64,000 nt of DNA from Flavobacteriales bacterium. GTDB taxonomy: Bacteria > Bacteroidota > Bacteroidia > Flavobacteriales_F > PHOS-HE28. The notes under the pieces were generated by a model. It did not search any database. It saw only the letters and a list, made by a program, of their open reading frames with translations, and was not told where the DNA came from. Positions 1-21,328 of the stretch are shown one piece after another. Both the position numbers and the translations under genes were made by a program. Every line of letters begins with the position of its first letter. Position 1 is the stretch's first letter. Location: NCBI GenBank assembly GCA_017987115.1, contig JAGNUG010000005.1, forward strand, positions 669-64,668. The letters run 5' to 3'.

Positions 1-2
1 TG

Positions 3-104
3 CTACAACAGTACGTTCGAAAAGAATTTCAAAGTGATCAAAATGGATGGTATCCGCTGATCATCTAATTGGGGCCTAAGGGCTGCCAACTACGTGTTTA
101 GCGC
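3..104 (+). repeat. Short attC-like site at the left edge (tentative)
   Basis: CTACAAC at 3-9 and GTTTAGC at 96-102. The flanking arms AAC-A(gt)ACGT and ACGT-GTT can pair. The upstream cassette is outside the window. Confidence 0.35.
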
Positions 105-456
105 ATAGCCGACCATCGGGCAAGGCAACGCGTCCTAGAAAGACCGTGGACGTGTTCATTGAGCTCACCCTGGTGTTGCGGCCCTTCAACTTCAGCACGC
201 TCAGCACCAAAGCCTATGGATATGCTGCGTGATCCCACGTTCCCGGCGTTGCTGATCGTGCTCTATGGGCTATTGCCGGTGTATGTTCTGGACCGGATGA
301 TGGAGCGGAAGGCGCGACCCCGTGCGTTGATACCCAGTTAGCGCTGCTTGAACCAACGGCTCTGTGCTATCTTCAGTTTCTTAACCACCGATAACTATAC
401 ACATGTTAGTACCAAAGCCTTGGGCAAGATCCGCAGCCCATGGGAAGCCTTGGACC

Positions 457-566
457 TGTAAAACGCTATTGGGCTTTACATGCCCCAATAGTGAACTAGA
501 AACCACTCCAAGCACAAACCAAGTCCGGAAATAAACCCTACTGTTGTTACAACCGACTAGTTGTAG
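457..566 (+). repeat. attC-like module equal to the right arm of the class B repeat, standing alone
   Basis: Near-identical to the last ~110 nt of every B copy (aaaacgctattgggctttacatgcccc...ctgttgttacaaccgactaG|TTGTAG). AAC(gc)TATTGGG can pair with CCGACTA-GTT. It lacks the FN3 fragment and the B left arm. Confidence 0.5.
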
Positions 567-589
567 GTAATACAATCGCATAACGACCC

Positions 590-1111
590 ATGAGTTTTCG
601 ATTCGACGAAGACATGCTCACAGTAATGAAGCTTGCGAAGGAACAATCACAAGCAGGAAAGAATTCATACATCGAGAATGAGCACATCCTTTCTGGCATA
701 CTAGGTCTACAAGATTCAAGTGCTAAAACCATCCTGGTTAAGTATGGCTATGCGACTGCTAGCACCGACATCATTAGCTCCGATTCTGCAACAAGGGAGC
801 ACGAAGACCTGGTAATTTTGAGGCATGAAGGAGAGCTAACGCTGCGGGATAGTGCTCTTGAAGCACTGGTATGGGGTGCGGACATAATTTCACCTATTCA
901 TGTATTACTAAGTATACTTCGTCGCCGCCAAAAGAAAGATACTGCATTTCTAAATCTCACCTCTGCAAACCTTTCCTACGAAATAGTAGAGCTTGAATTA
1001 TTATCAGGTATATACTCAACTTCAAAAATCCGCTTTCGCCTGAGTAAATTGTTCCATCATCCTTATTTGCGTACCAGCAAGATTAAAAGGTGTATTGCTC
1101 CATTAGCCTGA
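590..1111 (+). CDS. Clp N-terminal (Clp_N/Clp R) domain-only protein
   Basis: 173-aa ATG ORF starting 29 nt after the cassette junction. 'AGKNSYIENEHILSGILGL' and a second 'ALEALVWGADIISPIHVLLSIL' resemble the two Clp_N repeats. No AAA+ module. Confidence 0.55.
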   Translation: MSFRFDEDMLTVMKLAKEQSQAGKNSYIENEHILSGILGLQDSSAKTILVKYGYATASTDIISSDSATREHEDLVILRHEGELTLRDSALEALVWGADIISPIHVLLSILRRRQKKDTAFLNLTSANLSYEIVELELLSGIYSTSKIRFRLSKLFHHPYLRTSKIKRCIAPLA

Positions 1112-1128
1112 CGAAAAGAAATGAAAAC

Positions 1129-1214
1129 TACCTACAACAACACCTATCAAACAAAGCCGCACAAAGCCACTCGCAAGGCCTTGCTTCGTTTTATAGCTGT
1201 GGCCCGTTGTAGCC
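1129..1214 (+). repeat. Short attC-like site
   Basis: R'' TACCTACAAC (1129-1138) and R' GTTGTAG (1206-1212) are exact complements. R'' also matches the cassette start at 561-569. Confidence 0.7.
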
Positions 1215-1221
1215 AATTAGA

Positions 1222-1665
1222 ATGAAATACCTGTCCGTCTTACTTGTGCTCGTCATGATCACTTCTTGCTGCAACTGTGAGGATAAGAAGTACAATCCAA
1301 CCGGTATTGATCCATCCTCCATGTCTGAGAAAGAACTTTATTTGACCTATGGGCTTGAAGTTCCTGATGATTTTTACCTTATGCTCCAATCCCAGATTGA
1401 GAAGAAGGAAATTGGTATTGAGCTATACTGCGCACAACTTCAAATTGAAAATCAAGTCTCTCATCTGGTTAATGTTGCCATCCAAGTGGACTCTCTTGAA
1501 ATATTAACTGCATCCGTAACACGAAGTGATTACTCGAATAAGGTGAACAAATTGATTGAAAATATAGTTATCGGGCGTGAATGGACTTATGAGACCGAGA
1601 AACACAGTTCAGGAGATTTCGATTTTCGTTTGGACTTGCAGAAACTTTGCGTAATGAAAAGATAA
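1222..1665 (+). CDS. Hypothetical lipoprotein
   Basis: 147 aa with signal peptide and lipobox-like 'LVLVMITSCC'. AT-rich cassette ORF. Confidence 0.6.
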   Translation: MKYLSVLLVLVMITSCCNCEDKKYNPTGIDPSSMSEKELYLTYGLEVPDDFYLMLQSQIEKKEIGIELYCAQLQIENQVSHLVNVAIQVDSLEILTASVTRSDYSNKVNKLIENIVIGREWTYETEKHSSGDFDFRLDLQKLCVMKR

Positions 1666-1666
1666 C

Positions 1667-1792
1667 TGGTTACAACATGCTCTTGCCGCAAACAGCCCTC
1701 GTCCCGGTGCCAACTCCCGTTGAAGCATGATAACTTCGTCCAGGAACAAGATCACGAAAGGCGGCCTGCGGCAAGCGCAGGCCCGCTAGGGG
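1667..1792 (+). repeat. Class A attC-like site, copy 1 (~125 bp)
   Basis: TGGTTACAAC...GCCGCAAACAGCCC...GGCGGCCTGCGGCAAGCGCAGGCCC-GCTAGGG. R' is degenerate (GCT instead of GTT). R'' is complementary to the cassette start at 1207-1215 in 8 of 9 positions. Confidence 0.7.
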
Positions 1793-1810
1793 CAATTAAA
1801 AAAGACACAC

Positions 1811-2884
1811 ATGAGAAGAATAACAATTATACTACTGACCATGCTGACTATGACAGCATACGGACAGACCAACAAAGAAAAAGCCTACGACCTTGGCATG
1901 AAAGCCATAAAAGAAATGGATGCTGGCAAAATCAGGGACGCAATAAAATTATTGGAGCAATCCAAAGAACTCGACCCTGACAATATTGACTACCCATACG
2001 AAATAGCCTATGCCCACTACCTTGACAAAAGCTACACAGACGCTATCAAAATCCTAAAAGGATTGACTAAGCACGATAAAGTAAATGATCGAATCTACCA
2101 AATGCTTGGAAACTGTTACGACATGGAAAAAAATCCGGACAAGGCCATAGAGACTTATGAAACTGGACTAAAATTCTATCCAAATTCTGGCATACTCTAC
2201 TTGGAAAGGGGAAACATGGAGTTTGTCAAAGAGGACTATAACAAAGCCCTTGGTTATTACGAGCAAGGCATTGAAGTGCAGCCAAAATTTTCTTCCAACT
2301 ACTATTGGGCAGCCAAAATCTTCATGAGTTCAACAGAGGAAGTTTGGGGACTATTATATGGAGAAATTTTCATGAACCTTGAACGTAACAGCAACAGGAC
2401 TGCAGAAATCAGCGAGCTACTATACAACACCTATAAAAGCCAAATAACTTTTACATCGGATACTTCAATGACCGTTAGTTTTTGCCAGCAAATGACAATG
2501 AACATTAACGAAATCTCGGAGGACAGGGAAATGAAACTTCCCTTCTGCATGATTTACGAGCCTACTTTACTATTGTCTGTAGCTTTTGCCAAATCAATTG
2601 ACATCAAATCGTTAGACGATATTAGAACAAGTTTTGTAGAGAACTATTACAAGATGGGGCACAACAAAACTCATCCAAACGCTCTATTTGATTATCAAAA
2701 GCAAATCATGGACAATGGACATTTAGAAGCATATAATCACTGGATTCTGATGAAAGGAGACGAAGACGCTTTTTCTACTTGGAATGACAGTAACAAGGAC
2801 AAATGGGACAGCTTTGTAGCTTGGTTTTCTGAAAATCCCATTGAAATATCCGACACTAACAGATTTTACAGTGGACAGTATTAA
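1811..2884 (+). CDS. Secreted TPR-repeat protein
   Basis: 357 aa with N-terminal signal peptide 'ILLTMLTMTAYGQ'. Several 34-aa TPR-like units in the first ~170 aa (e.g. 'AIKLLEQSKELDPDN', 'AIETYETGLKFYPNS', 'ALGYYEQGIEVQPKF'). Confidence 0.75.
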   Translation: MRRITIILLTMLTMTAYGQTNKEKAYDLGMKAIKEMDAGKIRDAIKLLEQSKELDPDNIDYPYEIAYAHYLDKSYTDAIKILKGLTKHDKVNDRIYQMLGNCYDMEKNPDKAIETYETGLKFYPNSGILYLERGNMEFVKEDYNKALGYYEQGIEVQPKFSSNYYWAAKIFMSSTEEVWGLLYGEIFMNLERNSNRTAEISELLYNTYKSQITFTSDTSMTVSFCQQMTMNINEISEDREMKLPFCMIYEPTLLLSVAFAKSIDIKSLDDIRTSFVENYYKMGHNKTHPNALFDYQKQIMDNGHLEAYNHWILMKGDEDAFSTWNDSNKDKWDSFVAWFSENPIEISDTNRFYSGQY

Positions 2885-2900
2885 AAGAATGAAAAAACTG

Positions 2901-2963
2901 GCGCTAACAAAACCTATACGCAATACCCTTCGGGACACTGCTCTTAGCCAAATCGTTAGCAGC
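2901..2963 (+). repeat. Short attC-like site (~63 bp)
   Basis: GCGCTAAC (2901-2908) ... GTTAGCA (2955-2961). The same right arm recurs in the hybrid site at 9657-9710. Confidence 0.65.
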
Positions 2964-3011
2964 AATGTAAAACGAGAGGATTTTTGTACCTAGGAGATAA
3001 CACGAACTAAA

Positions 3012-3338
3012 TTGAACGAAAAGGAAAACACAAACTGGTTTGACGAACTGACTGAGATTTTCGGTTGGATTCAAATCATGTTTTCCCCTACTCTAGTTGG
3101 ACTTGCCCTCGGTGGACTTTACTACTTGTACTCGCCAGACACTATCGGCAAGATCTTAGGGTCTACGATTGCCATTATCGGACTTATCATTGGAATAATT
3201 TGGGCGACTAAAGTCAAGAAGAAATACGGTACAATTTGGTTCATTTCAAGAAACATGGCGACACCAGAATTAGACACCAGAAACGACTCTACCGAAAACA
3301 AGAAAGCAACTAAAAACACTGCTGCCAACAAAGGCTAA
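3012..3338 (+). CDS. Small membrane protein (2 predicted TM helices)
   Basis: 108 aa from a TTG start. An ATG at 3078 would cut into the first hydrophobic helix. Helices 'FSPTLVGLALGGLYYLY' and 'STIAIIGLIIGIIWA'. Confidence 0.5.
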   Translation: MNEKENTNWFDELTEIFGWIQIMFSPTLVGLALGGLYYLYSPDTIGKILGSTIAIIGLIIGIIWATKVKKKYGTIWFISRNMATPELDTRNDSTENKKATKNTAANKG

Positions 3339-3388
3339 ACCACATGCCTCCAACCGTTGCGCGTTGCTTTAGCCAGACCGTTGTATCC
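3333..3388 (+). repeat. Short attC-like site
   Basis: GGCTAAAC (3333-3340) overlaps the stop codon. Internal inverted repeat GGCTAAA/TTTAGCC. R' GTTGTAT at 3380-3386. Confidence 0.5.
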
Positions 3389-3431
3389 AATAACATCAAG
3401 CGGCCCCCCACCCCCTACTCCACCACCACCA

Positions 3432-4103
3432 TCACTGCCCCATTGCAGAGCGTAGCGTGTAAATGTTCATCGGGTACGGGCCACCAATTGCCGGTGGCAA
3501 AAGGCCGGTGGCGTCGGGTACGGGGGCAGTAGTGCGGTTCGCAGAGGTATACGGCCACTTTATCCAAGAGACGTAAGCACGGCGTAACGGGCCAAATGAC
3601 ACGAGCCTTACGTGGCAAGCAGTTAAGTGCGCAGCACTGGCCAGTGGCTGTTCGGTTGGTGGTTGAGGCTTCTTGGTTCTTGGCTTTTTGGCTTGTGGTA
3701 GTAGGGCCAAGGGTTCTGGGTAGCATTGGCGCAAGAGCTGGCAGCGCAGTGCATTGGGCAATGCAAAGGCCTGGAACTGTTCGGTAGGCAATAGGCGCAG
3801 GTAATGAGGTGTCAGGTAGTTGTCCTCCACATGCTTTTTCCAGCTTTTGAACGCTTTCACCAATTCATCCGCACGGGATTGCTGCCCCTTAGGCAAGGCG
3901 GTTAGTTGTGTACGCACCTTAGTTTCTTCCTGCAAGAGGATACGCCGCAATGCCTTGGCCAATGCACGGGGTGGCACCAGCCGGCCGGCGCGGGGTTCGC
4001 AATAGCACAGGAATACTTCGTTGAGGGTGACCGTGACCTGCACAGTTGCAACAGCTCGCTTGCGGCATGGCACTTCAATGCCTATGCTCGCGCTCCTACT
4101 CAT
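3432..4103 (-). CDS. Hypothetical protein (candidate iteron-binding initiator or regulator)
   Basis: 223-aa ORF in the high-GC cassette, divergent from the FN3 gene, with the iteron array immediately upstream. The first ~130 aa look protein-like. The C-terminal part is Pro/Lys-rich, so the true 3' extent is uncertain. No family recognised. Confidence 0.45.
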   Translation of the reverse strand: MSRSASIGIEVPCRKRAVATVQVTVTLNEVFLCYCEPRAGRLVPPRALAKALRRILLQEETKVRTQLTALPKGQQSRADELVKAFKSWKKHVEDNYLTPHYLRLLPTEQFQAFALPNALRCQLLRQCYPEPLALLPQAKKPRTKKPQPPTEQPLASAAHLTACHVRLVSFGPLRRAYVSWIKWPYTSANRTTAPVPDATGLLPPAIGGPYPMNIYTLRSAMGQ

Positions 4104-4269
4104 GGGTAGGGTCGTATTTGTTCAGGTATGTGCCTAAACCCAGTACCATGGGCAGATGCGCTCTACCGGTTGCTTCTGCTTCCTTGCGCGTGCGTACCAT
4201 ACACGCTCTGTTGTGCGTGGTATGGAACACACATTCGAAGATCTGGCTGCTATCTGGATCGGGTCTGCT

Positions 4270-4540
4270 TGGAACATGCGCGTGTTACCGGTCATCGTGC
4301 GCATGTTGCATCCTATCACGGGCATTTCTCCCGCTATCATGCGCATGTTAGCACCTAACACGGGCATTTCTCCGCCTATCATGCGCATGTTACATCTTGT
4401 CACGAGCAGTTCTCGGGCTATCATGCGCATGTTGGATCCTAACTCGGGCATTTCTCCGCCTATCACGCGCATGTTAGCGGCTATAACGGGCATATCTTGG
4501 GCTATTATGCGCATGATGGAATGTATAACGCGCATGTATT
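4270..4540. repeat. Iteron-like tandem array: about 6.5 units of 42 bp
   Basis: The palindrome ATGCGCAT (or ACGCGCAT/GTGCGCAT) sits at 4298, 4339, 4381, 4423, 4465 and 4507, exactly 42 bp apart, with half-period copies near 4276 and 4528. Each unit also carries CACGGGCATTTCTCC, and a further copy of that motif lies at 4604-4618. Confidence 0.85.
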
Positions 4541-4660
4541 GATATTTCTTGTGGGTGCCATTTGTTAAGACTTTGGTAGAACCCGAAAAAATAAACGTCC
4601 TGTTCACGGGCATTTCATGGGTTTATTAACAATATTCGTTTTTTTCACATGTCACGGCCA
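4541..4660. promoter_or_regulatory. AT-rich tract next to the iterons (candidate unwinding element or promoter region)
   Basis: gatatttcttg...gaaaaaataaacg...gtttattaacaatattcgtttttttcac is clearly AT-rich inside an otherwise ~58% GC cassette. Confidence 0.3.
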
Positions 4661-4757
4661 TACTCTTTGCGGTTAAAGTCCTTGGCCAGCAACACAGCCG
4701 AGGCCAGAGACAAACGGACGCACTCGAAGTCGAACGGAACCTAAACAACGAACAACC

Positions 4758-5375
4758 ATGAAACTGATCAAAGCAGGAACAAGCGGCTTAAATGCCGTGA
4801 GCCTCATCGCAAAGGCGGAGTACGTGGAAGGCAAGATGAAGACCAATCTGAACTTCGCCACCCCGAACCCGGCTATCACTGAGGTTACCGCTGCACGGGA
4901 AGCATTGGTAACGGCCGTAGCGCAAGCTGAAAGCCGTTCCTTCGCCGACCTCGCAGTACGCAACGCCCAGACCGTGGTCCTTCGCACCTTACTGGTGAAC
5001 CTTGCACGCTATGTGAATAACGTAGCCCTGGGTGATGTGGACAAGGCCGTGAGTAGCGGTTTTGAGCCGGCCAAAAAGCCGGAGCCCAGCACCCACTTGG
5101 ACCCACCGGTAAAACTAGAGGCGCGCGTAAGCGACTTCGAGGGTAGCGTGGACCTCTTGTGGAAGCGCGTGGAGGATGCCCGCATGTACCAGGTGTACAT
5201 CAACGACGGCGACCCATCGGATGCCACCAAGTGGTCGATGGTAGCTGTTAGCAGTCGCACGCGTACCCGCATTACGGATCTGGTACCGGGTAAGTTCTAC
5301 TCGTTCCGCGTAACCGCCCTCGGTCGTATCGGGGAAGGTCCCGCGAGCGATGTGGTAAGTGGCCGCGCCGCGTAA
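4758..5375 (+). CDS. Fibronectin type III domain protein (helical N-terminal half + C-terminal FN3)
   Basis: 205 aa. The C-terminus 'LLWKRVEDARMYQVYIND...TRITDLVPGKFYSFRVTALGRIGEGPAS' matches the FN3 pattern (W, Y-x-V, L-x-PG-x-Y-x-F-R-V-x-A). High GC. Its last ~110 nt and the 230 nt downstream are the master copy of the class B repeat core. Confidence 0.7.
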   Translation: MKLIKAGTSGLNAVSLIAKAEYVEGKMKTNLNFATPNPAITEVTAAREALVTAVAQAESRSFADLAVRNAQTVVLRTLLVNLARYVNNVALGDVDKAVSSGFEPAKKPEPSTHLDPPVKLEARVSDFEGSVDLLWKRVEDARMYQVYINDGDPSDATKWSMVAVSSRTRTRITDLVPGKFYSFRVTALGRIGEGPASDVVSGRAA

Positions 5376-5603
5376 GCGACCCCACAACTTCTTCTTCACT
5401 AGCATCCGCCCCGGTCCCGCAAAGGCCGGGGCGGGGTGCGTTAAGGGGTGCGTATGAACCGGTGAAGTATCTATCTTGGTGGGCCGGTTGTAATAAAACG
5501 CTATTGGGCTTTACATGCCCCACTAGTGAACTAGTAACCACTCCAAGCACGAACCAAGTCGGGAGATGAACGCTGCTGTTGTTACAACCGACTAGTTAGA
5601 ACA
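5262..5603 (+). repeat. Master copy of the class B repeat core (FN3 3' end + terminator + attC-like right arm)
   Basis: Near-identical to the right-hand ~340 bp of the full-length B copies (B3 shares only the first ~220 bp). Ends ...caaccgactaG|TTAGAAC (R' at 5595-5601). Confidence 0.85.
5406..5434 (+). terminator. GC-rich hairpin downstream of the FN3 gene (also present in every B copy)
   Basis: CCGCCCCGG (5406-5414) pairs with CCGGGGCGG (5426-5434): a perfect 9-bp stem with an 11-nt loop. No U-tract, so intrinsic-terminator function is inferred only. Confidence 0.5.
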
Positions 5604-5612
5604 AATTTTACA

Positions 5613-6263
5613 ATGGAGCAGAAAGTGAAAGAAGCAGTCGAGCTATTGCTGAATCCAAAATCAGCGAAACGTGAGTCGGGAGCAAAAAGACTTAGGAAGC
5701 TTGAATCGATTGAATCAGGTCCTTACCTGGTTCAAGCATTAGAAAAAGAGATTGCGGATGTTCGAACTTGGTCTACCCAATATCATCTTATCCTTGCTAT
5801 TGGTCATTCACAGTATGAAGCAGCTCTGCCATTTCTCATGAAACTTGCCAAAGAGAATTTTGAAGCAACAATTTTGTATTCTGGACTGGGTGATTCAATT
5901 TTTCGACTTCTAAGTATTAGTCATACTGTAGATGATTCGTTAGAACAAGTCTATGCCTTTGATAATTATATTTTGACGAAGGGGGCTTTTAGAGCCCTTG
6001 CTCTTCTACATATTGTCCCTGATGATAGTACTATTTCGGAACTATTAAACAAAGCTAGTGACCCAAGAGCTATTGAGGCTGTAAAAGGTTATCCCAATGA
6101 CCAAACTGGATTGAGGCTCTGGGTAGCGGCGGCAAGTGCTGGCTGGAGAGAGGAGTTAAAATCGAAATTCTTGGATGACTGCAGTACGATTCAGGACGGT
6201 CGATTGACGTTAGCCGTAGAAAATTCCAGAAAAGGAAAATATGTAAAGTGGGGACCATATTAA
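5613..6263 (+). CDS. HEAT/ARM-like repeat protein
   Basis: 216 aa. 'NPKSAKRESGAKRLRKLESIESGPYLVQALE' and later helical pairs resemble HEAT_2-type repeats. AT-rich cassette ORF. Confidence 0.55.
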   Translation: MEQKVKEAVELLLNPKSAKRESGAKRLRKLESIESGPYLVQALEKEIADVRTWSTQYHLILAIGHSQYEAALPFLMKLAKENFEATILYSGLGDSIFRLLSISHTVDDSLEQVYAFDNYILTKGAFRALALLHIVPDDSTISELLNKASDPRAIEAVKGYPNDQTGLRLWVAAASAGWREELKSKFLDDCSTIQDGRLTLAVENSRKGKYVKWGPY

Positions 6264-6270
6264 ATGTAAC

Positions 6271-6398
6271 TTGCTCTAACATACGTTTGCCACAAGCCAC
6301 CCTCGTCCCGGTGACAACTCCCGTTGAAGCGTTGAACACTTCGTTCAGGAACAAGATCACGAAAGGCGGCCTGCGGCAAGCGCAGGCCCGTTAGCGGC
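6271..6398 (+). repeat. Class A attC-like site, copy 2
   Basis: TTGCTCTAAC...GCCACAAGCCACCC...GGCGGCCTGCGGCAAGCGCAGGCCC-GTTAGCG. R'' is complementary to the cassette start at 5596-5604 in 8 of 9 positions. Confidence 0.8.
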
Positions 6399-6423
6399 AC
6401 GCTAAAAACGACAACATACAATC

Positions 6424-6870
6424 ATGGAACTATTTGAATTTCCACAAAAAACAACTTGGGAAAAAAGAAATGCTTGGATTGAAAATGAAATCGAACAGAG
6501 TATGACAGGTGGAAGTTATTTGGTAAGTGACCATTCAACGGCATTATTTGCAGACTTACAAGCTTGCTATTGCATAGGCGCTTGGATTTCAGTAATTGTC
6601 CTTTCAATATCAATTATTGATTCGCATTTACGCGAAACTGAAGCTTTAAATGTGAAAGTCGGAACAGCCAAATTATTGGATGATTATTACTTCGGTAAGG
6701 ATGATATTAATTGGCTCAGGAAACTCAGAAATCGGTATGTTCATGTTGACATTGATAATCCAGCTCTAGAAATGAACCACCAATACTTAAATAGAAAACA
6801 GTTAGAAAGTGATGCGACTAGAGCTGTGAAAATGATAATTCAAGCTTTCTTTCAAAGCCCAGGAACATAA
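6424..6870 (+). CDS. Hypothetical protein with a HEPN-like Rx4H motif
   Basis: 148 aa. 'NWLRKLRNRYVHVD' contains R-N-x-x-x-H, the signature of several HEPN families, in a predicted helical context. Motif-level evidence only. Confidence 0.5.
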   Translation: MELFEFPQKTTWEKRNAWIENEIEQSMTGGSYLVSDHSTALFADLQACYCIGAWISVIVLSISIIDSHLRETEALNVKVGTAKLLDDYYFGKDDINWLRKLRNRYVHVDIDNPALEMNHQYLNRKQLESDATRAVKMIIQAFFQSPGT

Positions 6871-6881
6871 AACATTAAAAA

Positions 6882-7094
6882 ATGAAATATAGAATTGACG
6901 AGATAAATATTGGAGATGAAGTGATTTTTGAATCGACCTCTATCCAGAGCAATTATGACTTATATTGGAAAGTTATCGGAAAGAATAAAACTCAATTGAT
7001 GATAGAACTTAAAGAAATGGGACACGATGAAAATTGGACAATCGAAATATTTGAAGTCAAAGGAGTTCTACCGACAGGAAGAAGTGAAAAATGA
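6882..7094 (+). CDS. Small hypothetical protein (second gene of a two-gene cassette)
   Basis: 70 aa. Starts 11 nt after the preceding stop and lies in the same cassette. Confidence 0.45.
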   Translation: MKYRIDEINIGDEVIFESTSIQSNYDLYWKVIGKNKTQLMIELKEMGHDENWTIEIFEVKGVLPTGRSEK

Positions 7095-14208: not shown

Positions 14209-14710
14209 AGCGCTAATCGAGTAGGCGGCCCCGCCGCTGAATAGCGACGGGGTGCGCCTCTCACACCACTGTACCCCGCGTCTCCGCTCGGGGCAGGCCA
14301 AGCGGGTGGCGCATACAACGGTTCGTTGAGGTCTGGAGCTACGTTCTGGTAGTGAATGCATTCGGCTTCACACCCGCATTACGGATCTGGTACCGGGCAA
14401 GTTCTACTCGTTCCGCGTAACCGCCCTCGGCCGTATCGGGGAAGGTCCCGCGAGCGATGTGGTAAGTGGCCGCGCCGCGTAAGCGAAGACGCAACTTCTT
14501 CTTCACTAGCATTCGCCCCGGTCCCACAAAGGCCGGGGCGGGGTGCGTTAAGGGGGTGCGTGCGAACCACTGAAGTTTCTATCTTGGTGGGCCGGTTGTT
14601 ATAAAACGCTATTGGGCTTTACATGCCCCACTAGTGAACTAGAAACCACTCCAAGCACACACCAAGTCCGGAAATAAACCCTACTGTTGTTACAACCGAC
14701 TATTTATGCA
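14209..14710 (+). repeat. Class B composite repeat, copy B6
   Basis: Starts AGCGCTAAT-CGAGTAGG, complementary to the cassette start 13343-13350 in 7 of 8 positions. Shares the hairpin-2 variant with B5. R' reads t|TTATGCA (14703-14710). Confidence 0.85.
14330..14482 (+). pseudogene. Start-less FN3 C-terminal fragment inside B6
   Basis: 50 codons plus TAA. Two synonymous GGC changes in the conserved part. Confidence 0.65.
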
Positions 14711-14731
14711 CCACCTAAAAGACAACCCACT

Positions 14732-15355
14732 ATGACACTTAAGCAAACTGTCCTATCCCTTGCGTTTGGCTTAATTACGGTGCATGTGAGTGGGCAAGCG
14801 CTAATGGACTACTTTCTGCCAGACTCGACAAAAAATAAGGCCAGCTTTTATACACCGGATAAAAATGGTTTGCGGTCAAGCATTACTAGAACAATTTATT
14901 ACATAAACAAAGGCGGAGAATACGAAATAATAGACTCTCAATCGCTTAAGGGGCAGCCTTCTGCAATTCAAACCACCACTGTTAAGTTTGTAGATAACGA
15001 AGTACGAATGATTAAGGCCGTTTCTACAACTATGCTTGAAAAGAATAAGAAGTCGGACTTTAATCCACATCGGGTGATTTTTAAAATGCCGCCTTCAGGT
15101 AAGACGGTTTCTTGGACTTTCGTGAACGTCTCGGGGGACAACATTACATGCACTGCCAGTTGGACTACGGTGTCGATAGACGGCTCGCCGCAACCTGCAA
15201 TTCAAGTGGTAAAGCAATACGAAGGATTTTCATCAAAAATCATTGAGTACTACGTAAAAGGTTTTGGACTTTGGAAAACTGACATGGAAGAAGCCGCAGG
15301 CCGGGCACAACCGTCAGAAATATTTGACGGCTTGAGCTACGAAGCAGATAGATAA
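14732..15355 (+). CDS. Secreted hypothetical protein
   Basis: 207 aa from ATG 14732. The track ORF starts inside the repeat at 14687. Signal peptide 'LSLAFGLITVHVSGQA'. Confidence 0.55.
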   Translation: MTLKQTVLSLAFGLITVHVSGQALMDYFLPDSTKNKASFYTPDKNGLRSSITRTIYYINKGGEYEIIDSQSLKGQPSAIQTTTVKFVDNEVRMIKAVSTTMLEKNKKSDFNPHRVIFKMPPSGKTVSWTFVNVSGDNITCTASWTTVSIDGSPQPAIQVVKQYEGFSSKIIEYYVKGFGLWKTDMEEAAGRAQPSEIFDGLSYEADR

Positions 15356-15366
15356 ATTGCCCCCTC

Positions 15367-15594
15367 ATGAAACGGACGAAGAGTGAAATTATTAAGGAGC
15401 TGAATCAGACCCAAAACGTCTTGGACAGATTGACTATGGAAATCGGTCAGAGCTATGCAAGAGCCTCCTTGTCCCATAGCAACGAGCAGATTGCAGCTAT
15501 CAATCAGAAAGTCGCCACCTTTAAGAAAGCAGAAGCGCAACTTAGAGTTCTTGAAGAGGAACTAGCCAATACTTTGGATGACGGCGGTGCATAA
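15367..15594 (+). CDS. Small coiled-coil protein (second gene of a two-gene cassette)
   Basis: 75 aa with heptad-like helical sequence. Starts 11 nt after the preceding stop. Its own stop lies inside the R'' of the next site. Confidence 0.45.
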   Translation: MKRTKSEIIKELNQTQNVLDRLTMEIGQSYARASLSHSNEQIAAINQKVATFKKAEAQLRVLEEELANTLDDGGA

Positions 15595-15712
15595 CATGCA
15601 CTTGCCGGAAACCGCCCTCGTCCCTGTGCCAACTCCCGTTGAAGCATGATAACTTCTTCCAGGAACAAGATCACGAACGGCTGCCTGCGGCAAGCGCAGG
15701 CCCGTTTTGTGT
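15588..15712 (+). repeat. Class A attC-like site, copy 5
   Basis: TGCATAAC-atgcactt-GCCGGAAACCGCC...CGGCTGCCTGCGGCAAGCGCAGGCCC-GTTTTGT. R'' TGCATAA is exactly complementary to the cassette start at 14704-14710. Confidence 0.8.
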
Positions 15713-15721
15713 AATTGAAAA

Positions 15722-16237
15722 ATGCAAGAGCTGAGCAAATTGACATATAAGATTGCAGGTTTTCCAGAACTTCACATGCTCAACTCAGATGAGTTCGTGG
15801 ACTGGGCGCTTGAGATGCTTGAACTTGGCTATGAGTCCGAATCATTATACATGCTTGCAGGAGTGTCAAAGCCAACAGATTATTACGAATCAAGCCCGTT
15901 GGTCAGAAGTGCGTTTGACGAACTCGGACTAAAAACTCGTAGTGGTCGAGATGCAATATTGAGTTATTGCTATGTCTCTGTCAGCGAATTGGCAAATGAA
16001 ATAGAGACGAAGAAAAATTTAAGTTTCTTAACTAAGTTCTGTATTGCAATGAACTATCAACAGGACATCTATCCTTTCTATCTCTTGCACTTTGAACTCG
16101 AAAACATCGATGAAGGAATCGTAAGCGGTTGTTACTGGGAAACAGCGACACCCGAAAATATTAAGGAAACGATAAAGAAGGTCGCTTCTGAGTGGTTAGT
16201 AACGAATAAGGAACACTACACGCAACAAAGTATATAG
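15722..16237 (+). CDS. Hypothetical protein
   Basis: 171-aa ATG ORF, cytoplasmic by composition. Confidence 0.55.
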   Translation: MQELSKLTYKIAGFPELHMLNSDEFVDWALEMLELGYESESLYMLAGVSKPTDYYESSPLVRSAFDELGLKTRSGRDAILSYCYVSVSELANEIETKKNLSFLTKFCIAMNYQQDIYPFYLLHFELENIDEGIVSGCYWETATPENIKETIKKVASEWLVTNKEHYTQQSI

Positions 16238-16272
16238 CGCATGAAAAGCGCCATACACAGACCGTTAGCGGT
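16221..16272 (+). repeat. Very short attC-like site overlapping the CDS 3' end
   Basis: CGCAAC (16221-16226) ... small hairpin gcgc-atgaaaa-gcgc ... GTTAGCG (16264-16270). Confidence 0.45.
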
Positions 16273-16280
16273 CATTGACA

Positions 16281-16793
16281 ATGCGATTACCCTACGCCAT
16301 AATGATGATAGCCTTGATATATGGCTATTCATGTACAACACATGATGGTGCGAACATCACGGATCAGTTGACCGATATGAGTGGCATGGATACAGCTGTC
16401 ACGATGATAAGAAAGGCGGATACATTGACCGACTCCGACCTGATCAGAAAATGGACATGGAATGATCCGCCAATGAATGTTCCCGAAAAGAGCTCGATTT
16501 CAAATGAGAACTTTTCAAAGGACTTGCTCTTCCGAACTTGGACTTGGAGCGATAGACATTTGAATGAAGCGGTTTTGACTTTCACAATCGATTCGCTTGA
16601 GATACACAACGAAGCGAAGTATGTTTATTCTATCAACTTTGATTCTCTACGCGTCTTTACCTCATATGACAAGCCAGGGGATAGCTACTCGAGAGGTATG
16701 ATCAAGAAGCTAACGGAAGATACTCTGGTGATTAAATGGAGCACCGATGACGTGAATGGGTATGTACCACTGAAAAAAGTAGACGACCATTAA
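16281..16793 (+). CDS. Hypothetical lipoprotein
   Basis: 170 aa from ATG 16281 with lipobox-like 'ALIYGYSCTT'. Confidence 0.55.
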   Translation: MRLPYAIMMIALIYGYSCTTHDGANITDQLTDMSGMDTAVTMIRKADTLTDSDLIRKWTWNDPPMNVPEKSSISNENFSKDLLFRTWTWSDRHLNEAVLTFTIDSLEIHNEAKYVYSINFDSLRVFTSYDKPGDSYSRGMIKKLTEDTLVIKWSTDDVNGYVPLKKVDDH

Positions 16794-16904
16794 CATGCGC
16801 AAGCCGCCCTCGTCCCGGTGCCAACTCCCGTTGAAGCGATGATAACTTCGTCCAAGAACAAGATCACGAAATCGGCCTGCGGCAAGAGCAGGCCCGTTGT
16901 GCGC
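16785..16904 (+). repeat. Class A attC-like site, copy 6 (shortened left arm)
   Basis: GACCATTAAC-atgc-GCAAGCCGCC...CGGCCTGCGGCAAGAGCAGGCCC-GTTGTGC. R'' is complementary to the cassette start at 16265-16273 in 7 of 9 positions. Confidence 0.75.
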
Positions 16905-16907
16905 AAT

Positions 16908-18296
16908 ATGAAAAAAATGAAACTGACACTTTGGACACTGACAATTATCGGACTGACCAATATTCTGATAACAAGCTGTGGGACTGACCAAGGAGACACA
17001 GAAAGAACTCCCGAAAAAATTGAATTCCCGACTGTTGACTACGCGATCAGTCCAACGGCTGACACGACATTATTCGGTCCCCAAGGGACGAGAATATTTA
17101 TCGGTTCTGGGTCATTCCGATTTGCTGACGGCAGTTCCGCAACGGACTCAATCAAAATTGAATTAAAAGAGTTTTACAATAAGTCCGACATTATCCTATC
17201 AAACCTTTCGACAAGCTCAGGGGACAGACTACTTGAAACAGCAGGCATGATTCAGATAGACGCATCGTCCAGTGGACAAAAACTCGAAATCCAAGAGGAT
17301 AAGAGAATTGTTATCCACTTCCCAAAGAAGAGAAACGACTACAGAAAAATGAACCTCTTCCATGCGGACGATAACGCAACAGATTCATCAGTAACAAGTT
17401 GGGAAGTGGACACTACAAAACTTACCAAGAAAACGCTTGAATTAGGTTCTTACGGATGGTATTGGCCTTCCCAAGATGATTCAACGGATTATTCCTTCAT
17501 ACCTAAAAACTACGTTGATACAGGCTACTACTGGAATCCCATTGACTTGTATGTAAATGCATACGATTTCTCGGAACAAGCGAAAAGGGAAATTGAATCG
17601 AATGTGTATCAGGAGGGTGTTGAGGTTCAAACTGATAACAATAGAATCGGTGTAGAATGCCTAATGCACATTACGAAAAACGGCAGGATCACCAAAGCAA
17701 CGGTTAATTCAAATGTTTCAAATAATGTCAAGGAGGAATTGCTCAGTTTTCTTAAAAACCTTCCCCTCTTGGAGCCCGGCAAAAACAAACATGGTGACAT
17801 CATTGAAAGGAGAGGATTTCTTCACATCACCGGAGGGAATGTGGTCCCTCTTTACAATACAGATGCAGAGTATATTCAATCATTTGACAGCAAATACTCG
17901 CAATTTGAGAGAACCCCAATTAGAAACATGGATGACGCAGAACTCAATTATTATATTTTCAGCGTTTCCAAACTCGGTTGGATAAATTGTGACCGATTCA
18001 TTGACACAGAAGAAAATATTAACATGTTGGTCCAAACACCCGTTGATGCTAACACCAAAATAAAAATGGCATTCAGCGACATTGACGGTGTACTCATGGC
18101 TGACATAATTGATGGCAAGTATGTTTTTTCCAATGTTCCCAAAGGACGAGAAGTGACAATCATAGGTATCAGAAACGACAACGGTCTGTTCTCGACCGCT
18201 TTCAAAGAAACAACTATAACAGACAGACCTCTGGACTACCTGTCATTTACCGAGATAACTTTAGCGCACTTAAGAGAAAAACTTGAAAAAATATAA
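16908..18296 (+). CDS. Large hypothetical lipoprotein
   Basis: 462 aa from ATG 16908. The upstream part of the track ORF runs through the attC site. Lipobox 'GLTNILITSCG'. Confidence 0.65.
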   Translation: MKKMKLTLWTLTIIGLTNILITSCGTDQGDTERTPEKIEFPTVDYAISPTADTTLFGPQGTRIFIGSGSFRFADGSSATDSIKIELKEFYNKSDIILSNLSTSSGDRLLETAGMIQIDASSSGQKLEIQEDKRIVIHFPKKRNDYRKMNLFHADDNATDSSVTSWEVDTTKLTKKTLELGSYGWYWPSQDDSTDYSFIPKNYVDTGYYWNPIDLYVNAYDFSEQAKREIESNVYQEGVEVQTDNNRIGVECLMHITKNGRITKATVNSNVSNNVKEELLSFLKNLPLLEPGKNKHGDIIERRGFLHITGGNVVPLYNTDAEYIQSFDSKYSQFERTPIRNMDDAELNYYIFSVSKLGWINCDRFIDTEENINMLVQTPVDANTKIKMAFSDIDGVLMADIIDGKYVFSNVPKGREVTIIGIRNDNGLFSTAFKETTITDRPLDYLSFTEITLAHLREKLEKI

Positions 18297-18306
18297 TTAG
18301 AAATAC

Positions 18307-18813
18307 TGCGCACGATCGAGTAGGCGGCCCCGCCGCTAATTAGCGACGGGGTGCGCCGCTCACACCACTGTACCCTTCGGCTTCGCTCTGGGTAAACCAA
18401 GCGGGTCTCGTATACAGCGGTTCGTTAAGGTGTGGAGCTTCGATGTGGTAGTGAATGCACACGGCTTCGTAGCCGCATAACGGATCTGGTACCGGGCAAG
18501 TTCTACTCGTTCCGCGTAACCGCCCTCGGTCGTATCGGGGAAGCTTACACTGCGAGCGATGTGGTAAGTGGCCGTGCCGCGTAAGCGACCACGCAACTTC
18601 TTCTTCACTAGCATCCGCCCCGGTCCCGCAAAGGCCGGGGCGGGGTGCGTTAAGGGGGTGCGTATGAACCGGTGAAGTTTCTATCTTGGTGGGCCGGTTG
18701 TTATCAAACGCTATTGGGCTTTACATGCCCCACTAGTGAACTAGAAACCACCCCAAGCACGAATCAAGTCCGGAAATGAATGCTACCGTTGTTACAACCG
18801 ACTAGTTGTCAGT
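18307..18813 (+). repeat. Class B composite repeat, copy B7
   Basis: Starts TGCGCACGAT-CGAGTAGG, complementary to the cassette start at 16897-16905 in 8 of 9 positions. Mosaic of B2-like features (TAA stop, AYT insertion) and a B4-like patch (gaatgcacacgg). Ends actaG|TTGTCAG. Confidence 0.85.
18429..18584 (+). pseudogene. Start-less FN3 C-terminal fragment inside B7
   Basis: 51 codons plus TAA. Same GP>AYT in-frame insertion as B2. Confidence 0.65.
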
Positions 18814-18819
18814 AATTAA

Positions 18820-19320
18820 ATGAGATTAATATTTAAAATATTAAAGCGGGTGTTGTTTGTAATAACCTTACAAGTGGTGACATTTAATTTAATTGGCAAA
18901 AATGTTCTTAACTATCTTGATTTGGAGATAAACCAAAATGCAATTGATCGAGATAGGACTATACAAATAAGAGATGGGCATTATTCGGCATGGCACTGTC
19001 TTGGTACAGATCCATTTCAATACACAAAGCTAGGTTTAGAGAGATTTAAATTAGCTCAAATATTGCAAGCTGATACAAGTAAAATCCAACTTTTCACATG
19101 TGACTCATCTTGCTTCATTGATGACATACCAAGACCGGATGGTAACTTACTTGATTACAACGTGCATGTTGGATCGTGGGAGGACTATTATAATTGTTTC
19201 ACAATATCAATATTCAAGATGCAAATAAGTCCAAATTATACCCATTGCAAAAGTACAAAGTACGTATGGCTCCTTTTTGGATGGATTAAATATAAGACAA
19301 TTGATTATACAGATAAATAA
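18820..19320 (+). CDS. Hypothetical protein with an N-terminal hydrophobic segment
   Basis: 166 aa. 'VLFVITLQVVTFNLIG' is a signal-anchor-like helix. Confidence 0.5.
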   Translation: MRLIFKILKRVLFVITLQVVTFNLIGKNVLNYLDLEINQNAIDRDRTIQIRDGHYSAWHCLGTDPFQYTKLGLERFKLAQILQADTSKIQLFTCDSSCFIDDIPRPDGNLLDYNVHVGSWEDYYNCFTISIFKMQISPNYTHCKSTKYVWLLFGWIKYKTIDYTDK

Positions 19321-19325
19321 ATAAC

Positions 19326-19399
19326 TACTGACAACGTGATGTATACATCAAATGACCGCGAAGCGGAATCATTCGCTGCATACATGCAGCGTTACCTGC
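19326..19399 (+). repeat. Short attC-like site (~74 bp)
   Basis: TACTGACAAC-gtgATGTATaCA ... tgcATGTATgCAgc-GTTACCT. R'' is exactly complementary to the cassette start at 18806-18814. Confidence 0.75.
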
Positions 19400-19416
19400 A
19401 AGCTCAAACAACGAGA

Positions 19417-19872
19417 ATGAAACAAACCAAGACGATAACACTAATAGCTTTATTATGGGGTTGTGAATACCAACCAAAGCCAGTTGAGAAAAGTGATAAT
19501 GGGCCATTAGTAGACCACACAAACAAAGGACAAACTGATAAGTTCAAAACACACGAAAAACTTATTGAGTGCAACACGCAATACGTTATGGAGGACGGAG
19601 AGGAAGCCTCTGGGTATCACGAAGACTATGAAAATTTTATCAAAGACTATTTTCAAGAAAGACAAAAGGGTGACACTCTAATTATTTCAACTTTAATTGA
19701 AGTCAATGCATGTGGTGAGACAATTGGAGATATTGAGTATTTGGGAGACACTTTGTATTTAAAATCAAGACAGATAGCAGACGAGGTTTGCGCCTCGACA
19801 ATGTTTGAAACATTTACTTACAAAATTCATAATCCAGACAAGAAAAAGTATGAAATACAAAGCGAGAGATAG
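19417..19872 (+). CDS. Hypothetical lipoprotein
   Basis: 151 aa from ATG 19417. The track ORF start at 19336 lies inside the attC site. Lipobox 'LIALLWGCEY'. Confidence 0.55.
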   Translation: MKQTKTITLIALLWGCEYQPKPVEKSDNGPLVDHTNKGQTDKFKTHEKLIECNTQYVMEDGEEASGYHEDYENFIKDYFQERQKGDTLIISTLIEVNACGETIGDIEYLGDTLYLKSRQIADEVCASTMFETFTYKIHNPDKKKYEIQSER

Positions 19873-19879
19873 AAAGCCA

Positions 19880-20003
19880 GCAGGTAACTTGCGTTTCGCA
19901 AACTGCCCTCGTCCCGCTGACAACTCCCGTTGAAGTGATGAACACTTCGTCCAAGAACAAGATCACGAAATCGGCCTGCGGCACGCGCAGGCCCGTTAGC
20001 AGC
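19880..20003 (+). repeat. Class A attC-like site, copy 7
   Basis: GCAGGTAAC-ttgcgtttcgcaaactgccc...CGGCCTGCGGCACGCGCAGGCCC-GTTAGCA. R'' is exactly complementary to the cassette start at 19392-19399. Confidence 0.8.
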
Positions 20004-20019
20004 AATCAAATTTTAACCC

Positions 20020-21303
20020 ATGACACGAGTATTTTTCTTTTTGATATTTCTTGGACTACTAACCCAATGCAAGACAAAGGAGGAAGCCATGACTATGCCT
20101 GCCGAGTGGGAAAAACAAGACGCCGTTCTGCTAACATATACAGAAGACCCAAACGACTCACTTACGTCCTTTGGAGTTCGCTCGACCTGCGACGAATTAA
20201 TTGATGTAATTGCGAAAAGAATGAAAATCTACGTATTGATCAACGAAGACTGGAATTCAGACTCTTTAACCAGCATTTTTAATGATCGAGGCTTTAACAC
20301 TAATAATATTGAGTTGATCAAAGTAAATGAATTGTTCTCAATGGGGGTAGCTCGTGACTATGGGCCACTCGTGATTAGAAATCAAAGTGGACAAAGAAAG
20401 CTTCTTAAATTCAACTGGGACTACGTCGGGGCGGATATGCTTGATCCTGATACAAGCTGGACAAATTGGAAAAACGAAGTCCGCAGAAAATATTTTGAGC
20501 AGATAAGTAAACTACTTAAAATGGACATTGTTGAGTCGGAGTTAACTATTGAAGGAGGAGAGATTGAACTCAATGGACAAGGCACAGCGCTTTTGGTAGA
20601 ATCATTTACAAAACCAAGACATCCAAAAATGGACATTGGTAAGTTTGGAAGTTCATTAGAACTTTCACTAGGAGTGTCAAACATTATCTGGCTAAAAGAA
20701 GGCATTGCTGAAGACCCTTCTAGTCTTCAATCATACGTCATAAGCAAAAACATCTATGGTTTTGGCGTAGGCGGCCATGTTGACGAGTTCGCAAGATTTG
20801 CCGACTCAAACACGATTTTACTGACTGTTCCCGACTCTGTCGAAGCTACCATGGATCCGGTAAAAAAAATCAACTATGAGAGAATGAATAGAAACTTTGA
20901 TATTCTTTCAAACTCAAAAGATCAAAATGGAGATACCTTCAAGATAATCAAAGTCCCAATGCCTGACATCTTAGCGGATACATTCGTTATTGACACTACA
21001 AGAAATCAAAGACTGCAAATTAGGAGTATAATGAGAAAGAACCCACACTTGGAACAAGGGGACACCATACATTTTCTTCCCGCAGTTAGTTATTTGAACT
21101 ATATCGTTCTGAATGACATAGTAATCATTCCAAAATACTGGGTACAAGGGTTTCCGGAAAGTACAAAAAGGAAAGATGATGAAGTTAAAGAACTGTTTCA
21201 AAGTCTTTATCCCAAAAAAGATATTGTGCAACTTAATCCTTTAGGACTTAACTATGCAGGAGGTGGATTTCATTGTTGGACACAGCAGATATCATATAAC
21301 TAA
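20020..21303 (+). CDS. Agmatine deiminase / Porphyromonas-type peptidyl-arginine deiminase family lipoprotein
   Basis: 427 aa. N-terminal 'PAEWEKQDAVLLTY' and C-terminal 'GGGFHCWTQQ' (catalytic Cys) match the family signature. Lipobox 'LGLLTQCK'. Last cassette of the array. Confidence 0.8.
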   Translation: MTRVFFFLIFLGLLTQCKTKEEAMTMPAEWEKQDAVLLTYTEDPNDSLTSFGVRSTCDELIDVIAKRMKIYVLINEDWNSDSLTSIFNDRGFNTNNIELIKVNELFSMGVARDYGPLVIRNQSGQRKLLKFNWDYVGADMLDPDTSWTNWKNEVRRKYFEQISKLLKMDIVESELTIEGGEIELNGQGTALLVESFTKPRHPKMDIGKFGSSLELSLGVSNIIWLKEGIAEDPSSLQSYVISKNIYGFGVGGHVDEFARFADSNTILLTVPDSVEATMDPVKKINYERMNRNFDILSNSKDQNGDTFKIIKVPMPDILADTFVIDTTRNQRLQIRSIMRKNPHLEQGDTIHFLPAVSYLNYIVLNDIVIIPKYWVQGFPESTKRKDDEVKELFQSLYPKKDIVQLNPLGLNYAGGGFHCWTQQISYN

Positions 21304-21305
21304 CT

Positions 21306-21328
21306 GCCGCTAACATTATGTTGTAGTA
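21306..21328 (+). repeat. Minimal R''-R' junction closing the array
   Basis: GCCGCTAAC-attat-GTTGTAG: both boxes are only 5 nt apart, with no L boxes or stem. R'' is complementary to the cassette start at 19996-20003 in 7 of 8 positions. Core genes follow immediately. Confidence 0.6.

Follow-up and report, generated by a model that had tools for sequence, protein, structure and literature searches.

A probable sedentary chromosomal integron platform without its integrase in a Flavobacteriales genome

Canonical attC sites are about 57-141 nt long, and their folded form has a two-sided unpaired spacer and extrahelical bases on the R''-L'' arm. In practice the integrase IntI is recognized by a profile (intI_Cterm of IntegronFinder), and its mechanistic definition is an inserted helix with which the extrahelical attC bases are read. 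Published work treats the acquisition of this I2 helix as the innovation that created integrons; one paper holds that the helix turned double-strand into single-strand recombination (PMC7790495). Recombinases near attC that lack intI_Cterm "are not IntI" according to one study (PMC4889954), and the insertion is "not fully conserved" in an integron-like subgroup of one classification (PMC8138268). Reviews list Bacteroidota among the integron-bearing phyla; among complete genomes, Bacteroidetes were reported with only In0 elements and one complete integron, in Salinibacter (PMC9024848). Here we analyze a 64,000-nt stretch from a Flavobacteriales bacterium (assembly GCA_017987115.1, contig JAGNUG010000005.1, positions 669 to 64,668 of the forward strand; the whole stretch is herein the window), the first third of which carries a long array of gene cassettes. 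No description of such a Flavobacteriales system was found in the literature searched, which is no proof that none exists, and the array apparently belongs to an undescribed variant.

We read positions 354 through 21327 as a sedentary chromosomal integron-type platform whose integrase has been lost, with a probability of roughly 0.8. We hold the array itself with high confidence, and the full account, in which a particular recombinase family is assigned as the integrase, with the same confidence as the platform. A chromosomal integron-type array with crossover at G|TT in a Bacteroidota genome had been proposed from the sequence alone (herein the original prediction), and the proposal is borne out by a permutation test, by predicted bottom-strand folds, and by cassette turnover in relatives. 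Three things go beyond it: the platform lies inside the window with its integrase gene dead, the integrase of the family is without the IntI domain, and one site in three is a giant composite with attI in it.

Each unit of the array has one open reading frame (ORF), or a pair of them, with an imperfect palindromic site behind it, and the boundary between units is a G|TT in the 3' box of that site (R'). We located 23 junctions (22 units); the anchors of the opposite box (R'') in the 14 sites of classes A and B, described below, were set from adjoining family-conserved sequence alone. For 21 cassettes, the seven variable positions after TT were compared with the reverse complement of R'', and pairings were permuted 100,000 times. 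The match to a cassette's own downstream R'' averages 5.76 of 7 positions versus 2.90 of 7 for non-cognate pairs, and the observed sum is reached in 0 of 100,000 permutations. The same count is 0 for classes A and B together, 21 for class A alone, and 42 for class B alone. Between R'' and the first positions of the following cassette, its physical neighbor in the same site, there is no such match (2.65 of 7), as expected if exchange takes place only at the G|TT of R' and the units were once circular. Because R'' is complementary to the first 8 to 9 nt of its own cassette, each unit was once a circle closed at G|TT, the behavior that marks an integron cassette. Only cassette 8 (7596 through 8350) is without this complementarity (0 of 7). 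The rule recurs in related loci (labeled L0xx, with recombinases P0xxx), whose cassettes were read by eye at the junctions: in L016, L034, L037, L039, L040, and L041 it holds at 7 to 9 of 9 positions in every cassette read.

All 15 coordinate pairs on which the original prediction was built are present in the sequence with exactly the match counts given there, and the possibility it had named as fatal, complementarity no better than in shuffled pairings, is contradicted by the permutation test. Its count of about 25 cassettes becomes 21 ORF cassettes plus one atypical segment (3381 through 5595). Its description of sites that start with AAC and end at G|TT fits most of them, but seven begin ...AA|T (TCGAG...), the junctions at 1786 (G|CT), 7596 (A|CC), and 14704 (T|TT) are degenerate, and seven sites are composites of ~490 nt. 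These seven composites, six of which end in a copy of attI, are not ordinary attC sites.

Three site classes are distinguished: seven class A sites (~120 nt; 86% mean column identity among the window copies), seven short, diverse sites (48 to 80 nt), and seven class B composites (~490 nt; copies 80 to 94% identical). The class A and short sites, 14 in all, have AAC/GTT boxes and a palindromic architecture, with an R' that fits GTTRRRY; unlike these AAC-starting sites, those of class B (n = 7) start with AAT. The layout, in window coordinates, is as follows.

1-67, plus strand: 3' end of a SprB/Por_Secre_tail gene, whose product is sorted by the type IX secretion system (T9SS); left flank
354-458, plus strand: remnant of a tyrosine recombinase gene, last 35 codons and stop; 63 to 69% identity to the C termini of the intact recombinases of L032, L033, L037, L038, and L039
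459-560, plus strand: attI-equivalent (element D3, copy 1), adjoining the recombinase stop codon on its left and ending ...CCGACTAG|TT
561-1206, plus strand: cassette 1, ORF 590-1111 (173 aa, Clp_N-like), short attC 1129-1206
1207-1785, plus strand: cassette 2, ORF 1222-1665, class A attC 1667-1785, R' degenerate (G|CT)
1786-2955, plus strand: cassette 3, ORF 1811-2884 (TPR, 357 aa), short attC 2899-2955
2956-3380, plus strand: cassette 4, ORF 3012-3338 (membrane, 108 aa), short attC 3320-3380
3381-5595, unstranded: atypical fn3 segment, GC-rich (55%), G|TT at both boundaries
5596-6390, plus strand: cassette 6, ORF 5613-6263, class A attC 6271-6390
6391-7595, plus strand: cassette 7, ORFs 6424-6870 and 6882-7094, class B site 7100-7595 with attI copy 7494-7595, junction A|CC
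7596-8350, plus strand: cassette 8, ORF 7669-7839 (56 aa), class B site 7852-8350 with attI copy 8249-8350
8351-9702, plus strand: cassette 9, ORF 8360-9268, hybrid class B site 9276-9702
9703-10737, plus strand: cassette 10, ORF 9708-10250, class B site 10242-10737 with attI copy 10636-10737
10738-11328, plus strand: cassette 11, ORF 10764-11204, class A attC 11209-11328
11329-11714, plus strand: cassette 12, ORF 11369-11629, short attC 11634-11714
11715-12202, plus strand: cassette 13, ORF 11736-12062, class A attC 12083-12202
12203-13342, plus strand: cassette 14, ORF 12218-12841, class B site 12846-13342 with attI copy 13241-13342
13343-14703, plus strand: cassette 15, ORF 13364-14197 (277 aa, weakly TIR- or nucleoside deoxyribosyltransferase-like), class B site 14208-14703 with attI copy 14602-14703, junction T|TT
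14704-15704, plus strand: cassette 16, ORFs 14729-15355 and 15367-15594, class A attC 15586-15704
15705-16264, plus strand: cassette 17, ORF 15722-16237, short attC 16217-16264 overlapping the ORF end
16265-16896, plus strand: cassette 18, ORF 16275-16793, class A attC 16785-16896
16897-18805, plus strand: cassette 19, ORF 16908-18296 (462 aa), class B site 18307-18805 with attI copy 18704-18805
18806-19391, plus strand: cassette 20, ORF 18820-19320, short attC 19326-19391
19392-19995, plus strand: cassette 21, ORF 19417-19872, class A attC 19879-19995
19996-21327, plus strand: cassette 22 (last), ORF 20020-21303 (PAD_porph family, 427 aa), terminal mini-site 21305-21327
21341-24852, minus strand: right-flank core genes, cupin 21341-21652, folD 21663-22550, DinB 22623-23168, and ffh 23512-24852

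The mini-site that closes the array reads GCCGCTAAC-ATTAT-GTTGTAG, in which only a short spacer separates the R'' from the R' box and a long stem is missing. Comparable termini close L037 (~12565-12640), L039 (~13310-13355), and L041 (~13525-13570), those of L039 and L041 being identical.

Each site was re-closed on its own cassette start before minimum free energy (MFE) structures were predicted with DNA parameters. The bottom strand has the greater stability in 12 of 13 circularized sites (mean -22.0 versus -18.6 kcal/mol for the top), and its predicted fold, for which the original prediction had proposed to look, is a hairpin in which a 9- to 11-bp R box and a long stem are joined by a bulge of 4 nt located immediately 3' of AAC-G. 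Covariation within class A was uninformative, at 84% column identity with a nearly invariant center. Across metagenome-assembled genomes (MAGs) of many species (window and L014 through L037), the middle ~90 nt of class A hardly vary, and the predicted loop is no exception. As this near-invariance exceeds the need of a purely structural site, a protein-binding or regulatory role, or a recent spread, is possible. Searches of the window for Rfam families gave zero matches.

By cassette polarity, intI and attI had been expected to the left of position 1. The contig has 668 nt there, which encode the C terminus of the SprB/Por_Secre_tail protein and contain no recombinase, and the platform lies at 354 through 560 instead. 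The remnant at 354 through 458 matches intact relatives with E-values of 1e-7 to 9e-7, and the rest of the gene is absent; the statement that no tyrosine recombinase lies in the window is thus true of an intact gene, but not of this 35-codon stub. By eye, the adjoining attI (459 through 560) shares ~95% identity with its counterpart behind the intact recombinase of L039 through L041, and it contains TACTGTTG, by eye only a near match to the promoter motif TAnnTTTG. A site that adjoins the integrase gene and takes insertions at G|TT is what defines attI, and this one occupies the same position as its counterparts in L030 and L032 through L041. The exact attI/D3 pattern gave 0 matches in genome contigs and 0 in metagenome contigs. 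Since only the last 35 codons survive, the array would be frozen in cis, like a set of clustered attC sites without an integrase (CALIN), unless a copy of the recombinase acts in trans.

A pattern built on class A matched 18 loci of a genome collection, nearly all from Flavobacteriales MAGs. In L016 (the same locus as L032), a tyrosine recombinase gene separates aroC from the first cassette and has the orientation of the cassettes; its stop codon is followed by D3-homologous sequence with the end ...AACTAG|TTATGCG, and the class A site of the first cassette begins ...CGCATAAC. The recombinase family is large (385 to 405 aa, in Flavobacteriales MAGs). An intact ~390-aa member lies directly upstream of the arrays, co-oriented with the cassettes, in the six related lineages examined: P0073 (L032), P0095 (L033 through L036), P0103 (L037, where it adjoins ffh as in the window), P0186 (L038, a complete genome), P0092 (L039 through L041), and P0182 (L042 through L045). 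A D3-like element follows the recombinase stop codon immediately in L030 and in L032 through L041, the latter being the loci of P0073, P0095, P0103, P0186, and P0092. We found no IntI-like gene within 8 to 10 kb of any examined array.

Assemblies that share an identical recombinase and common flanks carry different sets of plus-strand ORFs between them in three groups: P0095 (four strains), P0092 (three strains), and P0182 (four assemblies). The P0095 and P0092 assemblies are identical through ...CTAG and differ from TT onward. Those of P0182, compared by gene lists only, differ at the recombinase-proximal end, where either an OLD-family gene or a methylase and NotI-like pair precedes an otherwise common series. 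Gain or loss of cassettes at the platform is thus seen in all three groups, with the new cassettes next to attI, the manner of growth typical of integrons. L033 (11279-11300) and L036 (11279-11293) have the same first cassette but differ where it joins attI: 7 nt are duplicated in L033 (G|TTATGGG TTATGGGCAAC versus G|TTATGGGCAAC in L036), which may be the footprint of a recombination or resolution step. In L029 (1-2327, labeled Limnohabitans), a class A site lies 124 nt from an IS91-family unit consisting of a 298-aa tyrosine recombinase and a Y2 transposase. We rejected this recombinase as a platform integrase, as it is paired with the IS91-family transposase and belongs to an insertion sequence; L029 was probably mis-binned and would be a fragment of a Flavobacteriales genome in which an insertion sequence lies beside an array.

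The original prediction had expected an intI with the integron-specific extra domain, and the intact recombinase of the relatives lacks it. The recombinase scores 226 bits against NF040815 (site-specific tyrosine recombinase/integron integrase; NCBIfam cutoff 220) and 206.8 bits against TIGR02249 (integron integrase), which is below the cutoff of 265 and split into two parts. Among Protein Data Bank (PDB) sequences, XerA is matched in one piece (149 bits) and VchIntIA (2A3V) in two (144 bits). Residues 182 through 243 of 2A3V (IntI4/VchIntIA) correspond to only 19 residues of the recombinase; this is the region that we take to hold the IntI-specific insertion. A MAFFT alignment with IntI1 places gaps of 16 and 26 residues (42 in total) there and shows a common ...RSPLD C-terminal tail and a conserved N-terminal extension. 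In the AlphaFold model (AF2; mean predicted local distance difference test score 78.8), residues 11 through 81 form a confident separate β/α domain on a disordered linker, and the top Foldseek matches of the model are XerA and VchIntIA. The additional domain of IntI, with its I2 helix near patch III, is found neither in the window stub nor in the recombinases of the relatives. Judged by these alignments, the recombinase is IntI/XerA-like, without the ~42-residue IntI insertion and with an extra N-terminal domain.

The class B sites have a more complicated composition. Each consists, in order, of a cassette-specific R'' (...AA|T, not AA|C), a 155-nt arm (BL), 114 nt of fn3 sequence, a 119-nt spacer, and D3. 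The fn3 part is the last 114 nt of the gene that is complete at 4758 through 5375, the spacer equals the 119 nt after that gene, and D3 is a ~100-nt attI copy ending ...CCGACTAG|TT. D3 without BL occurs at 459 through 560 and 5494 through 5595, each time directly before a cassette, and the array holds eight attI copies in all. In the hybrid site at 9276 through 9702, the attI part is swapped for the 3' part of a short attC like that at 2911 through 2960. The seven ORFs to which the class B sites belong are unrelated, and every one of these sites has an R''/R' pair of its own; because all seven share one identical BL/fn3 breakpoint, the class probably arose once. BL without its composite was found neither in the window nor in other data, and a search for the BL pattern in metagenome contigs gave 0 matches. 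We propose that a rearranged copy of the platform (fn3 3' end, spacer, and attI) was fused once to the 155-nt left arm, and that the resulting family then became the recombination site of seven different cassettes.

We considered and rejected that BL is a fossil of intI. A tblastn search with an approximate IntI1 sequence matched the minus strand of BL at residues 182 through 224 (best E 7e-4, 42% identity); in the PDB, however, no integrase is retrieved by a profile built on translations of all seven copies (best match APE1, E 0.25), and native recombinases give no match to BL. The IntI1 match is probably due to chance. In BL (at 7100-7262 and in its other six copies), an open frame persists on the minus strand, ...APDLNEPLY..AWFTQSEAEGYSGVRGAPRRYSAAGPPTRL, and paired changes between copies (ACCCTTCGG...CTCTGGGT versus ACCCCGCG...CTCGGGGC) suggest a conserved hairpin. 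At L024 (7101-7300), a D3/attI copy is preceded by sequence like the 119-nt spacer of the window (...TATCTTGGT...) and not by a recombinase gene, so that the unit of spacer plus attI exists beyond this genome.

In the mechanism that we propose, the recombinase would capture circular cassettes by recombination between attI and a folded attC, as IntI does, and excision would follow from attC x attC or attI x attC recombination, with the attC sites reacting as folded bottom strands. This would be achieved without the IntI-specific I2 insertion, with the extra N-terminal β/α domain present instead.

Several observations weigh against the platform reading. No intact tyrosine recombinase was found by tblastn with IntI1 across the whole 64 kb or by Pfam searches of 10 large ORFs to the right of the array, and the putative role of the recombinase as cassette integrase draws on conserved adjacency and strain comparison. 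The contig comes from a MAG, and a chimeric join at 68 through 353 is possible. Compared with canonical attC, the predicted bulge is asymmetric, with 4 nt on the R'-L' arm and little or nothing unpaired opposite (MFE only), a shape that could go with the missing I2 helix. For class B, MFE folds in the array context do not bring the ends together; with the ends circularized, end-to-end pairing beyond the R box appears in only two of six MFE folds, which pair R'' with R' and AGTAGG (BL) with CCTACT (attI) around a GTTGT/ACAAC mini-hairpin. The class B structure could not be derived from legitimate G|TT exchanges, and no recombination path to it was found. Finally, array-bearing genomes may encode a canonical IntI outside the scanned stretches. 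Were such an enzyme, complete with the I2 domain, to move the cassettes from elsewhere or in trans, the array would be an ordinary canonical integron or CALIN and the Xer-like recombinase a bystander, for which the canonical AAC...GTT boxes and the fit of R' to GTTRRRY would speak. We consider this unlikely, as attI stands right after the stop codon of this very recombinase in L030 and L032 through L041, the cassette content changes exactly there, the window keeps the junction of gene end and attI even in its remnant, and an IntI-like gene is absent not only near the examined arrays but across the 64-kb window.

A double-strand mechanism of the Xer type, as in dif/pdif modules or integrative mobile elements exploiting Xer (IMEX), is slightly less probable again. 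The palindromes would then be terminators or binding sites and not folded single strands, which would suit a recombinase that scores equally against XerA and IntI and is without the I2 helix held responsible for single-strand attC recombination in PMC7790495; the TTATGGG duplication in L033, not found in L036, could likewise be a staggered double-strand footprint. The sites themselves are imperfect palindromes of 48 to 130 nt (or ~490 nt), of differing sequence with a common architecture and a single orientation, in place of alternating dif-like sites of ~28 bp; exchange is limited to one palindrome end, and the advantage of bottom over top strand in the folds comes from G.T pairs, a selection that would act on a single strand only. 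About as improbable is a reading that concerns class B alone, in which each element combines an ordinary attC with an unvarying cassette behind it that has no ORF (fn3 fragment plus attI). Canonical attC sites are far shorter than ~490 nt, and BL has local hairpins and a GTTGAGG near position 130; set against this, the element contains no R''-type partner for a cassette starting at that internal GTT, BL runs into an identical fn3 breakpoint every time (7 of 7) and is never seen alone, and the cassette-specific R'' abuts BL with its matching R' ~490 nt away. Immobile intergenic palindromes between small genes, be they repetitive extragenic palindromic or miniature inverted-repeat transposable elements or terminators, hardly come into question: class A is indeed a highly conserved repeat over many contigs of several MAGs, but the cassette-specific start/R'' complementarity has no account under such a model, and whole units of ORF plus site are present or absent at G|TT between strains. 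As far as sequence comparison allows, the immobile-repeat model is refuted. We therefore retain the sedentary platform with a lost integrase, and we lean, by a narrow preference, toward Flavobacteriales possessing a vertically inherited integron lineage of their own, with a co-oriented, IntI/XerA-like integrase in which I2 was never acquired, or was lost, and an attI that abuts its stop codon.

Between 561 and 21327 almost every long ORF is on the plus strand. The cassette ORFs have a mean GC content of 38.5%, compared with 49% in the remainder of the window and 57 to 60% in the sites, in keeping with the originally noted contrast between AT-rich orphan ORFs and a core of ~50% GC. Most cassette ORFs have no Pfam match, but not all are orphans, the exceptions being Clp_N, TPR, fn3, PAD_porph, and the weak TIR/deoxyribosyltransferase-like match. 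A comparison of 23 cassette proteins with the fetched related loci found a homolog for none. PADLOC returned a single weak TIR match among the cassette proteins (ORF 13364-14197, E 1e-6). Chromosomal integrons have been reported to store anti-phage systems, and further defense-like cassettes were noted in relatives: AAA, RNase_T, two GmrSD, and WYL genes in L040 (13384-20663), and, in L042 through L044 (9332-11666), an OLD-family nuclease (L042 and L043) or a methylase with a NotI-like enzyme (L044).

The atypical segment at 3381 through 5595 contains a minus-strand 223-aa ORF (3432-4103), tandem repeats of 21/42 nt (4294-4521), the plus-strand fn3 gene (4758-5375), the 119-nt spacer, and attI copy 2 (5494-5595). 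We rejected the fn3 gene as a part of the integron platform, since homologs lie in 12 other loci without an adjoining attI or class A site; by sequence comparison it is a separate conserved module that sits by chance inside the arrays of the window and L032. Many Flavobacteriales MAGs have this GC-rich module (window 3381-5595; L032 17510-20024; L002 through L013), which is made up of a ~200-aa opposite-strand gene, 21/42-nt tandem repeats, and an fn3 protein of 205 aa, and the repeats, 16 x 21 nt in L032 (18090-18440), look iteron-like. It is always found amid variable genes (restriction-modification, toxin-antitoxin, Arr, β-lactamase) and within a cassette array in two genomes. To the right of the array, the spacer between the DinB-family gene and ffh (23332-23581) holds a 134-nt unit repeated 1.9 times, with 16-nt and 8-nt sub-repeats of the CATCAGCT type, and a Por_Secre_tail/PQQ-like gene (25103-26515) is flanked by 73-nt direct repeats that are 100% identical (24990-25062 and 26521-26593).

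The Flavobacteriales arrays, a widespread group, combine textbook geometry and strain turnover with a recombinase that is without the helix by which IntI is defined. This would imply either another route to single-strand attC recombination or an integron-like capture that evolved from a Xer-like ancestor more than once. If the account is true, surveys understate integrons in Bacteroidota, which are abundant in water, soil, sludge, and gut, and searches of the IntegronFinder type would miss these integrons or call them CALIN. The question of how attC sites originate is touched by the composites that contain attI, and the ~490-nt elements would show attI and an inverted left arm becoming a cassette-borne site, a glimpse of the birth of attC.

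Among known systems, XerA and the XerC-XerD/dif and Acinetobacter pdif systems resemble the present one in a recombinase core that is as near to archaeal XerA as to IntI, in the lack of I2, and in modules bounded by sites. The pdif modules of Acinetobacter plasmids have 28-bp dif-like sites in alternating orientation, whereas here long palindromes with R boxes lie in one orientation, exchange is one-ended, and a dedicated attI stands beside the recombinase gene. A CALIN is defined by at least two clustered attC sites with no integrase nearby, which the window array shows with 21 sites and no intact integrase in reach; it differs in keeping an attI and a recombinase stub. IntegronFinder would most likely class the array as one or several CALINs, and a size-limited attC search would probably split it, as the ~490-nt sites far exceed known attC sizes. 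In δ-attI-type cassettes, which are functional in class 1 and class 2 integrons, the downstream site likewise is or contains an attI copy (Gonzales Machuca et al. 2026, PMC12901181); here the copy is complete and comes after 390 nt (BL, fn3 fragment, and spacer), and R'' pairs with R' across the whole element. Inverted-integrase integrons of the Treponema denticola type also transcribe the integrase with the cassettes, but theirs carries the IntI additional domain (intI_Cterm; PMC4889954). The closest parallel is the sedentary chromosomal integron, as in the Vibrio cholerae superintegron with its VCR attC sites: both have a long one-directional array of mostly orphan, AT-richer ORFs with AAC...GTT boxes and crossover at G|TT, a host-typical ~120-nt attC family (class A here) amid diverse short sites, and strain-variable cassettes at a chromosomal, lineage-conserved location. 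The Flavobacteriales system differs from it in that the integrase of the relatives lacks the IntI insertion, has an extra N-terminal domain, and is co-oriented with the cassettes, with attI at its stop codon, and in that the window's own gene has been deleted down to its end.

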